Origin: Acidobacteriota bacterium | GTDB lineage: Bacteria; Acidobacteriota; Vicinamibacteria; Vicinamibacterales; 2-12-FULL-66-21 | Direction: 5' to 3' | DNA: 64,000 nt | Assembly (NCBI GenBank): GCA_046735335.1 | Contig: JBKPTE010000004.1 | Location: forward strand, 6,406-70,405 | Shown here: piece after piece, positions 61,854 through 64,000 of the stretch | Numbering within the stretch: position 1 is the first letter of the stretch | Layout: each line of letters opens with the position of its first letter | The notes under the pieces: model-generated | Database searches by the model: none | Told to the model about the DNA's origin: nothing | Seen by the model: the letters and a program-made list of their open reading frames with translations, nothing else | Made by a program: the position numbers and the translations under genes

Positions 61854-62438
61854 ATGGACGCGGCGCTCCCAGACGACCTTCAACAGCTGCAGGACGGCTT
61901 GGACGCGGCGGAGCGCGACGCGCGCGCGCTCATGGACGGTTTGACGGAGCGGCTCGGAGCCTGGCGGGCGCATTCTGGAGCGTGGAGCGTCGCGGAGTGT
62001 CTCGACCACATCGCGACGGCAAATCGCGTCTACCTCGCGCCAATGGAACCGTCCGCGGTCCGGGCGCGCGCCAGCGGCAGTCGCAGGCGCGGCGTTGCGC
62101 GTCCGGGCCTCGTCGGCGGCTGGTTCGTGCGCTATCTCGAGCCGCCGGTGAAGCTGAAGGGCAAGGCCCCGCGGAAGATCAGGCCGCGATCCGCGCCCGC
62201 GCTCGACGACGCGTACACCAGCTTTCTGGCGATGCAGGACGAGGTGCGCGCGTTCATCCGGAACTACGCGGAGATCGATCTCGCACGCGTCGCCTTTCCA
62301 AATCCATTCATCCGCGGCGTTCGCTTCAGCCTCGCGACGGGCCTGCACGTCATTGCAGCGCACGAACGGCGGCATCTCTGGCAGGCGTGGAGAGTCCGTC
62401 GAGCGGCGGAGCAATCGGCTGGAACGCAGCCGCTCTGA
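61854..62438 (+). CDS. DinB-family (DinB_2) protein
   Basis: Four-helix pattern WSVAECLDHIATANRVY ... HVIAAHERRHLWQA with His-containing metal-site motifs. Confidence 0.8.
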   Translation: MDAALPDDLQQLQDGLDAAERDARALMDGLTERLGAWRAHSGAWSVAECLDHIATANRVYLAPMEPSAVRARASGSRRRGVARPGLVGGWFVRYLEPPVKLKGKAPRKIRPRSAPALDDAYTSFLAMQDEVRAFIRNYAEIDLARVAFPNPFIRGVRFSLATGLHVIAAHERRHLWQAWRVRRAAEQSAGTQPL

Positions 62439-62526
62439 CGAGCAGCCACGGTCCGAGCGGAACCTCGAACGCGAGGATGGGCATCCAGACCGCCTGAGCG
62501 GCGCGTTGACGGCGGGCGTCATCGTA

Positions 62527-62815
62527 CTACTCCGATCGAAGCGCCTGCAGCACGTCGACGCGCGAGGCGCGAGCCGCCGGCAGCAACGAGGCAACAGCCG
62601 CGGCGGCCATGAGGATCGCGGTCCGCGAGCAGGTTCCTGGGCGCAGATCCGACCGCCAGGAGAATCCCGAACTCACGCGTCCGGGCGCTCACGGAGAACG
62701 CGAGCACGCCCGCAACGCCAACGACGGCGATGAGCAGCGCGATCCCGGCCAACCCGGAGAACACGAAAGCGTTCAGTCGCTCCGGCGACAGCACCTCGTC
62801 GCGGATCGAAGAACC
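62527..62815 (-). pseudogene. C-terminal fragment of an FtsX/MacB-like (ADOP-type) ABC permease, frameshifted
   Basis: ERLNAFVFSGLAGIALLIAVVGVAGVLAFSVSARTREFGILLAVGSAPRNLL then shifts frame to ...RTAILMAAAAVASLLPAARASRVDVLQALRSE-stop (stop at 62527-62529). Everything upstream of the last transmembrane bundle is missing. Confidence 0.65.
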
Positions 62816-62824
62816 AACCGCCGA

Positions 62825-62981
62825 CCGTAGAACGTCTACGGCTTTGTTCCGAATGGGGGAACGCCGGGTCTGAGAGACCCGGCCTACAGCAGCTGTAGGG
62901 CGGGCCTCTCAGGCCCGCCACAGAGGCCGGGTCTAAGAGACCCGGCCTACGGAGAGACCCGGCCTACGGAGAGACCCGGCC
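62825..62981. repeat. cluster of GC-rich palindromic (REP-like) units plus a 17-bp tandem repeat
   Basis: Hairpins are CCGTAGA-acg-TCTACGG (62825-41), GCCGGGTCT-gag-AGACCCGGC (62863-83), CTACAGC-a-GCTGTAG (62884-98), GGCGGGCC-tctca-GGCCCGCC (62899-919) and GGCCGGGTCT-aag-AGACCCGGCC (62925-47). These are followed by tacggagagacccggcc x2 (62948-62981). Confidence 0.85.
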
Positions 62982-63002
62982 TGCACATACAATGAACAGT
63001 TC

Positions 63003-64000
63003 ATGGACACGCGTGACGCGCCGCTGGCGATCGATCCGGCGGCTTTCCGTACTGTCGGCCACCGGCTCGTCGACAGGCTGGCGGACTTTCTCGACTCCCT
63101 TCCCCGGCGTCCGGTCACCCGCAACGAATCGCCGTCGGAGGTGAGGGCGGCGCTCGGCCTCGGCGGCGGGTTGCCCGACGCCGGAACGGACCCCGCTGTG
63201 CTGCTGGAAGAGACGGCGTCGCTGCTGTTCGATCATTCGCTCTTCAACGGACATCCGCGATTTTTCGGATACATCACCTCGTCGCCGGCGCCGATTGGCA
63301 TCCTCGCCGAGTTCCTCGCCGCTGCCGTGAACCCGAACGTCGGCGCCTGGATGCTCTCGCCCGCAGCGACGGAAATCGAGTCACAGACGGTGCGCTGGAT
63401 CGCATCGTTCATCGGGTATCCCGAAGACTGCGGTGGTCTGCTCGTGAGCGGCGGCAACATGGCCAACATGGTCTGCTTCATGGCCGCGAGGGCCGCCAAA
63501 GCGGGCTGGAACGTGCGCGAGCAGGGGATGGGAGGCACGGGACGAGCGCTTCGCGTCTACGGATCCGCCGAAACGCACACCTGGATCCAGAAGGCGGCAG
63601 ACCTGAGCGGGCTCGGATCCGCGTCGATTCGCTGGATTCGAACGGCGGAAGATCTGCGCATGGACGTCGACGCGCTGCGGCGCGCGATCGAAGCGGACAT
63701 CGCGGCCGGCGAGACGCCCTGCATGGTCGTCGGTACCGCCGGGTCCGTCGGGACCGCCGCGATCGATCCCTTGCCGGCGATCGCGGCGATGTGCAAGGAG
63801 TACGGCCTATGGTTTCACGTCGACGGCGCGTACGGCGGGTTCGCCGCCGCCGTGCCGGACGCGCCGGACGACCTGCGCGCGCTGCGCGAAGCGGATTCGA
63901 TTGCGGTCGATCCGCACAAGTGGCTGTACGCGCCGCTCGAGGCAGGATGCGCGCTCGTGCGCGATCCCGACGCGCTCCGGAACGCGTTCGCCTATCACCC
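63003..64000 (+). CDS. pyridoxal-phosphate-dependent group II decarboxylase (aromatic-L-amino-acid/glutamate decarboxylase family), 3'-partial
   Basis: Open frame from ATG 63003 to the window end (not in the ORF track because it has no stop). It shows HPRFFGYITSSPAP, GGNMANM, HVDGAYGG and the PLP-lysine motif DPHKW. Confidence 0.85.
   Translation, partial: MDTRDAPLAIDPAAFRTVGHRLVDRLADFLDSLPRRPVTRNESPSEVRAALGLGGGLPDAGTDPAVLLEETASLLFDHSLFNGHPRFFGYITSSPAPIGILAEFLAAAVNPNVGAWMLSPAATEIESQTVRWIASFIGYPEDCGGLLVSGGNMANMVCFMAARAAKAGWNVREQGMGGTGRALRVYGSAETHTWIQKAADLSGLGSASIRWIRTAEDLRMDVDALRRAIEADIAAGETPCMVVGTAGSVGTAAIDPLPAIAAMCKEYGLWFHVDGAYGGFAAAVPDAPDDLRALREADSIAVDPHKWLYAPLEAGCALVRDPDALRNAFAYH

Follow-up and report, generated by a model that had tools for sequence, protein, structure and literature searches.

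A candidate cluster of GTAG-tagged palindromic repeats upstream of a decarboxylase gene in a Vicinamibacterales genome

The palindrome array and its setting

A compact array of palindromes (62863–62985) lies near the right-hand end of a 64-kb stretch of contig JBKPTE010000004.1 (assembly GCA_046735335.1, from an Acidobacteriota bacterium of the order Vicinamibacterales); the whole stretch of 64,000 nt is referred to here as the window, and positions are counted from its first nucleotide. The array precedes a gene for a pyridoxal phosphate (PLP)-dependent decarboxylase of the aromatic-L-amino-acid type, the 5' part of which occupies 63003–64000 on the plus strand (Pfam Pyridoxal_deC, E = 3.4e-50). 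The gene runs off the window end, and a protein search with the fragment retrieved the full 495-aa product (P0001, 100% identical). On the other side of the array lies what remains, at the 3' end, of a permease pseudogene of the FtsX/MacB (ADOP-like) type (62527–62806, minus strand; Pfam FtsX, E = 1.8e-7). We interpret the array as a cluster of GTAG-tagged repetitive extragenic palindromic (REP) sequences belonging to a family that is dispersed through genomes of the Vicinamibacterales (Acidobacteriota), a reading to which we assign a probability of about 85%. REPs are best known in Proteobacteria, and the Vicinamibacterales are an abundant, little-studied group of soil Acidobacteriota.

The array is made up of three complete 25-nt units, each consisting of GTAG and a perfect G+C-rich stem of 9 bp with a 3-nt loop, and two truncated units. 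The complete units are oriented -, +, - and are separated by spacers of 7 and 6 nt. REP1 (62863–62887, minus strand) reads GTAG + GCCGGGTCT-ctc-AGACCCGGC and scored 41.3 bits (E = 1.2e-9) with covariance model R1, which was built from 73 units of the family. REP2 (62895–62919, plus strand; 42.3 bits, E = 6.3e-10) has the GGC-type variant of the stem, GTAG + GGCGGGCCT-ctc-AGGCCCGCC, and REP3 (62926–62950, minus strand; 41.4 bits, E = 1.2e-9) reads GTAG + GCCGGGTCT-ctt-AGACCCGGC. The GTAG heads of REP1 and REP2 face inward across the palindromic spacer AGCAGCT (62888–62894), and the two units form an inverted repeat with 26-nt arms that are 88% complementary. REP2 and REP3, with ACAGAG between them, pair as a GTAG-outside heterodimer, and dimers of this type are the most frequent in the family. 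Both truncated units (62951–62984, minus strand, 17 nt each) retain the head, the 5' arm, and the loop and lack the 3' arm; the head is GTAG or, in the outermost unit, GCAG. Together with REP3 they make up a tandem repeat of 17 nt, which had been reported in an earlier reading of this DNA made without database searches (the sequence-only reading) and was confirmed by Tandem Repeats Finder (62936–62982, 2.8 copies, 100% matches).

The same reading had described five perfect hairpins with stems of 7–10 bp as one array. All five are present, the longest stem being 11 bp rather than 10. They are hairpin 1 (62825–62841, CCGTAGA-acg-TCTACGG, 7 bp), hairpin 2 (62863–62883, GCCGGGTCT-gag-AGACCCGGC, 9 bp), hairpin 3 (62883–62899, CCTACAGC-a-GCTGTAGG, 8 bp), hairpin 4 (62899–62919, GGCGGGCCT-ctc-AGGCCCGCC, 9 bp), and hairpin 5 (62924–62948, AGGCCGGGTCT-aag-AGACCCGGCCT, 11 bp). 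They do not, however, form a single array of like elements. Hairpin 3 is simply the two GTAG heads (CCTAC/GTAGG) that face each other across the 7-nt spacer, and hairpin 1, which gave no match to model R1, does not belong to the REPs but is a local conserved element.

The array is not a product of chance. The shared hairpin pattern matches twice in the window against 0.06 matches expected, and the 17-mer, with up to three mismatches allowed, matches five times against 0.24 expected, every time within 62873–62986. Of about 17 distinct perfect hairpins with a stem of at least 8 bp in the window, four fall within 90 nt. The 136-nt block is predicted to fold much better than shuffled controls, both as DNA (z = -6.4) and as RNA (z = -6.2, -80 kcal/mol). 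No further copy of the unit was detected in the window by pattern search, hairpin census, or model R1, with which the next-best match after the three units had E = 0.028. No Rfam 15 family reached its gathering score; the best hit, 29.6 bits against a threshold of 55, was among unrelated eukaryotic and small RNA families. A CRISPR array was dismissed, given the 17-nt period and the lack of spacers of that kind.

Dispersal of the unit among related genomes

Dispersal was surveyed with the pattern GTAGGSCGGGYCTNNNAGRCCCGSC, using one genome per species and counting matches as 8-kb stretches. At least 99 stretches in about 34 assemblies (judged by record titles) contain the pattern, and 92 of the 99 listed are labelled Acidobacteriota or Vicinamibacterales. 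The sequence-only reading had proposed that a unit unique in the genome would argue against a REP family; when this was checked in relatives, single metagenome-assembled genomes (MAGs) were found to hold at least 9–16 pattern-bearing stretches. The 99 listed loci contain 105 exact matches to the pattern and 247 units identified by a looser finder (GTAG plus hairpin), and the exact 25-mer of REP2 occurs in them four times.

The tag and the stem are both characteristic of the family, whose consensus is GTAGGSCGGRYCT-YTY-AGRYCCGSC. GTAG is the 4-mer immediately 5' of 150 of the 466 perfect 9-bp hairpins in these loci, while the next commonest 4-mer precedes eight; 105 of the 150 are there by selection with the pattern, which leaves at least 45 beyond it. 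At two stem pairs the pattern lets each side vary independently, and yet the two sides match as complements in 99/105 copies for one pair and 103/105 for the other (Fisher p ~1e-22 and 1e-21, for copies that share descent); the hairpin has therefore been maintained across sub-families. A count of pairs on alignment A1 was circular, its units having been picked as hairpins, and was not relied on.

The copies occur as 112 singletons, 27 GTAG-outside dimers, 13 GTAG-inside dimers, and some tandem or larger groups, including trimers. Dimers usually pair a GCC-type with a GGC-type stem, as REP2 and REP3 do. Their location was assessed with a rough, home-made gene caller based on codon usage, which called 84% of the DNA coding. 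Nonetheless, 102 of the 118 classifiable clusters lie outside called genes and 16 inside. The extragenic clusters are distributed among 61 co-directional, 28 convergent, and 13 divergent gaps, so that convergent gaps are enriched (27% of the 102 intergenic clusters vs 16.5% of gaps). Ten genes have REPs on both sides, and all are ordinary (rpoC, an sdhB-like gene, a sigma factor, dehydrogenases). The sequence-only reading had noted a resemblance to REPs and to bacterial interspersed mosaic elements (BIMEs), and that likeness is borne out by the GTAG tag on every unit, the multicopy dispersal in relatives, the extragenic position, and the inverted dimers. Its second comparison, to miniature inverted-repeat transposable elements (MITEs), was not upheld, as terminal inverted repeats of MITE size are missing. 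Membership of a MITE was likewise rejected when the loci were compared: only the 25-nt units recur, while spacers and flanks vary from site to site.

Seven of the 99 listed matches carry labels from outside the Acidobacteriota (L008, L068, L072, L076, L078, L084, and L099, these being locus designations; the labels are Chthoniobacterales, Bifidobacteriaceae, Opitutaceae, Acidimicrobiaceae, and Anaerolineales). The contigs labelled Bifidobacteriaceae have a G+C content of 67–69% and are for that reason probably mis-binned. The seven matches reflect either contaminated binning or a family, or a look-alike of it, that reaches beyond the Acidobacteriota. Separately, a 5.9-kb soil contig that holds a decarboxylase homologue (L123, Ga0163163_10023053) carries another GTAG-tagged palindrome, GTAGGCGCGGTCTGTGACCGCGC, at positions 486, 2543, 3282, and 5340, which is probably a second, unrelated REP family.

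Alleles of the decarboxylase locus

Orthologous loci were collected by a decarboxylase protein search and exact look-ups, and are compared here by the nucleotide identity of the decarboxylase gene to that of the window. At about 79% identity, L186, L187–L192, L194, and L195 have a PadR gene and an intact permease gene (878 aa), divergent from the decarboxylase gene, and no REP. L196 (82%) has PadR and one degenerate REP, the CTAC of which forms part of the -10 box discussed below (GGCCTACAAT). In L193 (79%) a DinB gene is directly upstream, PadR and permease are absent, and the REPs form a GTAG-inside dimer. The sister allele, represented by L198–L203 and L205 (95.7%), combines PadR and permease with a single REP (...GCCGAGGTCTGAGAGACCCGGCCTGCACATACAAT), which is perfect in L202. 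The window, L181–L185, L197, and L204 (at least 99.9%) share the permease remnant, three REPs, and a variable tail. A scan of metagenomes with the decarboxylase gave 80 homologous loci at 66–79% identity, which have neither conserved synteny nor the REP family; the one 96%-identical contig stops 64 nt into the decarboxylase gene. The alleles at this one promoter range from those without a REP to those with a single REP, a dimer, or a trimer, and the tail of the trimer has two, three, or five copies. REP clusters turn over within about 4% divergence, and do so even among strains that are at least 99.9% identical.

REP1 of the window has its orthologue in the only REP of the sister allele (L205 2659–2685). 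Window 62826–62888 aligns with L205 2623–2685 and window 62969–63010 with L205 2669–2710, which makes the window longer by ~97 nt; the extra DNA comprises a spacer, REP2, a spacer, REP3, and a half-unit. It is bounded by a 17-nt direct repeat, GAGAGACCCGGCCT(A/G)CA, which consists of a REP arm and head.

The tail is the most variable part. Eight independent metagenome contigs with an identity of 99.9% or more to the window were compared over 1–4.7 kb, within which they otherwise differ by 0–5 substitutions. The unit AGAGACCCGGCC is present in two copies in L184 and L197, three in the window, L181, L182, L185, and L204, and five in L183. Relative to the window, the copy-number variants show 1–5 substitutions and a single indel that equals the difference in 17-mer copies. 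These differences are provisionally taken as real because the repeats (34–85 nt) are shorter than typical reads. Such behavior is that of a classic variable tandem repeat, and with a single palindrome in the sister allele it raises the possibility that the whole array is a purely local tandem duplication, by slippage, of a palindrome that arose by chance, without a part for any mobile element. REP2 does not fit this: its stem (GGCGGGCCT) differs from that of REP1 and its orientation is opposite, so it could not arise by tandem duplication of REP1. Furthermore, the unit is dispersed, and both the exact REP2 25-mer and the pairing of GCC-type with GGC-type stems recur in other genomes. The tail is accounted for by slippage, but as an explanation of the entire cluster we regard slippage as extremely unlikely.

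The sequence-only reading had placed the start of the array where permease homology ends, and had suggested that the array marks a deletion breakpoint. Neither proposal survived the alignment with L205. The remnant keeps sequence for approximately the last 140 codons of the permease, with an internal loss of 46–48 codons (tblastn against the intact homologues in L167, L009, and L186). Homology to the permease, on the minus strand, stops at 62806, which is 57 nt before REP1. Window 62794–62806 corresponds to L205 1–13 (permease codons), after which homology stops, and it returns at window 62826, equivalent to L205 2623. About 2.6 kb are missing relative to L205 (14–2622): PadR, ~741 permease codons, and one upstream palindrome. 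The 19 nt between the aligned blocks, CGAAGAACCAACCGCCGAC, are filler unrelated to the REPs, and the junction is annotated as 62807–62824, up to the next palindrome. That palindrome, CCGTAGAacgTCTACGG, followed by CTTTGTTCCG, forms a conserved intergenic segment (62825–62851) that contains hairpin 1. Orthologues of the segment adjoin the PadR start codon in L186, L187, L194–L196, L198–L203, and L205, which makes it a candidate operator or promoter element of PadR. Some 37 nt of DNA orthologous to the PadR–decarboxylase intergenic region of relatives therefore lie between junction and array, the junction being 37–56 nt to the left, and because this conserved DNA separates the two, the array is not the breakpoint of the window; in addition, REP1 is already present beside the intact operon in the sister allele. 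Judged by the alignments, the deletion and the change in the array belong to one and the same recent lineage, and both postdate its divergence from the 95.7% sister allele.

The deletion is the setting for another explanation, in which the array is the remnant of a MITE or insertion sequence whose insertion or excision removed the PadR–permease operon. The array is within 60 nt of the 2.6-kb junction and its change is specific to the lineage that bears the deletion; the extra ~97 nt are flanked by a direct repeat; and L193 has lost the operon through a different deletion, one end of which coincides exactly with a REP. Several observations count against this explanation. The flanking repeat is REP sequence (3' arm and head) and not a duplicated target, and there is neither a terminal inverted repeat beyond the REP hairpins nor a fragment of a transposase. 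No unit of 100–400 nt recurs as a whole, and the conserved intergenic DNA stands between the array and the junction, whose filler is unrelated to REPs. REP1 coexists with the intact operon in L198–L203 and L205, as does a single REP in L196. We consider that this explanation has hardly any chance of being correct. A related scenario, in which insertion of a REP inactivated the PadR–permease promoter and led to the deletion, was ruled out, since the operon is kept alongside a REP in L196, L198–L203, and L205.

Several further features of the flanks were recorded. In relatives, two palindromes of the form GTAGAC...GTCTAC are found directly upstream of the PadR start (L186 9897–9950, L187 634–690, L205 2598–2650); the window retains only the second (62825–62851), followed by conserved CTTTGTTCC. 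A weak tblastn extension would have placed hairpin 1 inside the permease coding remnant, and this was ruled out by alignment with L186, L196, and L205, in which the segment is intergenic. In L193 the first REP (765–789) overlaps the last 11 nt of the DinB-family gene (194–775), and the PadR–permease segment is absent, an independent loss of the operon with its right end at a REP. L204, a contig otherwise identical to the window, has a 2-nt gap (41–377 against window 62106–62440) by which the call of the DinB-family gene is split, perhaps through a mistake in assembly or through a true frameshift. Metagenome contigs repeatedly terminate within the REP array or at one shared point inside a paralogous permease gene (L185 at position 1; L187–L192 at positions 1–3; L198–L205 at their left ends; also L101). 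The REP array and the paralogous permease repeats break short-read assemblies of these genomes.

Between the array and the decarboxylase gene lies a -10-like box, TACAAT (62988–62993, plus strand). Its position was given correctly in the sequence-only reading, although it precedes the ATG at 63003 by 9 nt rather than 10. The arrangement TA(C/G)AAT + 9 nt + ATG is kept in the window, L198–L205, L196, L193, L186, L187, L194, and L195, whereas the sequence upstream of it cannot be aligned among close lineages; none of 77 more distant homologues has the arrangement. The region from box to ATG occupies 62985–63005 in the window, 9985–10003 in L186, 836–855 in L193, and 621–640 in L196, where the CTAC of the REP supplies the first half of the box. 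A consensus scan called no sigma-70 promoter, and misses the box because there is no -35 element. The conservation suggests that the box is a -10 element serving an mRNA that is leaderless or nearly so, and that this leaderless promoter is clade-specific. The promoter context proposed earlier for the decarboxylase gene is thus plausible, with the array directly upstream of a conserved -10-like box. REP-derived sequence supplies everything immediately upstream of the box, including the would-be -35 region, and the variable repeat moves all that lies further upstream in steps of 17 nt.

In view of this position, the array might instead be a locus-specific regulatory structure (an operator, attenuator, terminator, or insulator) acting on the decarboxylase gene or against read-through from the upstream DinB-family gene. 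Such a role would suit the very stable fold predicted for the RNA, and REPs elsewhere are known to stabilize or terminate upstream transcripts. Hairpin 1 (62825–62841), a truly conserved local palindrome, fits this explanation best. However, the same 25-nt unit is found at 99 or more unrelated extragenic sites, beside genes such as rpoC, sdhB, and that for a sigma factor, and the lack of an Rfam match at gathering score also speaks against it. The same box and gene occur with no REP (L186, L187, L194, L195), with one, with a degenerate one (L196), or with a different dimer (L193), and the array must therefore be dispensable. The terminator role suggested by the sequence-only reading fails in particular: the REP hairpins lack a T-run, and none was called an intrinsic terminator in the consensus scan, in which the sole terminator-like call was the non-REP hairpin 1, followed by CTTTGTT, on which no gene converges. 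A dedicated regulatory structure is very unlikely in our view, and the default expectation is that the array is a neutral or mildly modulatory passenger with respect to expression.

Spread of the units and comparison with known systems

Several points weigh against reading the array as a REP cluster. For the source genome, only one cluster was seen in the ~74 kb covered (the 64-kb window and ~10 kb more in L181). The ~97-nt difference from the sister allele represents either an expansion in the window lineage or, in the sister, a collapse through recombination of the first arm with the last; its direction is not fixed by the outgroups, which have one REP (L196) or two (L193). To our knowledge, transposition of the Y1 type does not leave a flanking 17-nt direct repeat, and fresh transposition explains the repeat less well than does recombination, or template switching, between REP arms. 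No gene for a REP-associated tyrosine transposase (RAYT) or other Y1 transposase was found in the window and 0.75 Mb of REP-bearing loci (8-kb blocks). A phmmer search with E. coli RayT (from MG1655) gave no match at E up to 10 among 5383 six-frame open reading frames from the 99 loci and the window, a scan of the REP-bearing loci for the motif HUH...Y..NP gave nothing plausible, and there is no transposase among the ten genes with REPs on both sides. In 8-kb blocks this negative result is indecisive, because RAYT genes are normally single-copy (PMC5581495). Lastly, in a 2013 survey the tyrosine transposases encoded by several Acidobacteria had long terminal inverted repeats, and not REPs, at their flanks (PMC3733652).

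If the array is a REP cluster, mobilization by a RAYT-like enzyme may be envisaged by analogy with the REP/RAYT systems of E. coli and Stenotrophomonas. Each unit, for example GTAGGCCGGGTCTCTTAGACCCGGC, would fold into a hairpin on single-stranded DNA. A Y1 (HUH) transposase of the REP-associated kind would act in trans, reading the hairpin together with GTAG and cutting and joining at nearby CT dinucleotides, which would allow units to spread. Once copies were adjacent, the cluster could grow or shrink as the repeated arms slipped during replication or recombined unequally. Characterized REP transposases, for which the models are E. coli, S. maltophilia, and Marinomonas, do cleave at CT beside the REP, with GTAG guiding site choice (PMC8266576).

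The truncated units have counterparts in other genomes. Head-side truncated copies accompany about 10/191 units (~5%), while only one clear tail-side example was found (loci include L018 986–1010, L028 552–578, L037 5700–5724, L048 7382–7408, L057, L060, L090, and L093 481–559). They form short tandem arrays with a period of 14–25 nt upstream of full REPs, and most stop at the CT with which the 5' arm closes; the junction is ...CT|CC-GTAG in the window as well as in L037 and L093. It is in our view unlikely that the truncated units are more than slippage debris, being either footprints of REP copying or a contingency locus that tunes the decarboxylase. The first possibility is raised because known REP transposases cut at CT beside the REP, and the copies could, by that analogy, be footprints of repeated CT cleavage and strand transfer by a RAYT-like Y1 enzyme. 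We think this unlikely, and hairpin-stalled slippage is a simpler alternative. The second is suggested by the position of the array, directly against the -10 box, and by its natural variation among two, three, and five copies. Were the footprint reading true, such arrays would be natural records of a still unknown mechanism of REP replication, and if a cognate RAYT exists here, the frequent head-side truncated copies might help in the study of REP copying.

The analysis documents a clear REP family of the GTAG type in the Vicinamibacterales, apparently new for this order with its BIME-like organization, which matters for the annotation and assembly of these MAGs. REP clusters belong to a class of selfish or neutral DNA that is already known and are not a new system, and the general picture of REP biology is unchanged.

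The closest relatives are found in the GTAG super-family of REPs, defined by a terminal GTAG beside a short G+C-rich palindrome (Di Nocera, De Gregorio & Rocco 2013, PMC3733652). The units described here share the unpaired GTAG at one end and a loop of 3–4 nt. As in the published families, which comprise singletons, GTAG-outside dimers, GTAG-inside dimers, and trimers (PMC3733652), singletons, both kinds of dimer, and trimers all occur, and they are extragenic and biased to the 3' sides of genes. Sub-families differ by complementary changes in the stem, and heterodimers of two stem types are formed. The nearest form is that of the short, perfect-stem SMAG/GTAG-6 to -9 REPs of S. maltophilia, which are acted on by a group-3 TnpA_REP (PMC8266576). 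The S. maltophilia REP is 23 nt long, with GTAG, a perfect stem of 8 bp, and a 3-nt loop, and its TnpA_REP cleaves at CT (PMC8266576); the stem here is likewise a short, G+C-rich, perfect palindrome, of 9 bp. The present family differs from the described GTAG REPs in its stem and loop sequences, in its host, an order for which no REP family is reported in the searchable literature, and in its frequent head-side truncated copies in short tandem arrays, which are not described in the literature searched.

The head and foot of the unit stem are literally shared with what we take to be the E. coli REP consensus (GTAGGCCGG...). As in the BIMEs of E. coli, orientation alternates within clusters, and two unit types pair within dimers in the manner of the Y and Z REPs. 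E. coli REPs, in contrast, are ~35 nt long and have a bulged, imperfect stem that TnpA_REP requires (PMC8266576), whereas the units here are 25 nt with perfect stems, and the linkers with integration host factor (IHF) sites that are found in E. coli BIMEs are not present. Similarity to REPIN–RAYT systems (Bertels & Rainey 2011, PMC3116915; PMC5581495), in which REPs are paired as inverted doublets, extends to the lineage-restricted, multicopy nature of the family and to inverted doublets being its commonest compound form. Unlike REPINs, most doublets here are heterodimers whose arms differ at ~5 of 25 positions, and they make two hairpins rather than one long one. At the level of sequence, the array appears to fit a REP cluster of the GTAG type with BIME/REPIN-like organization.

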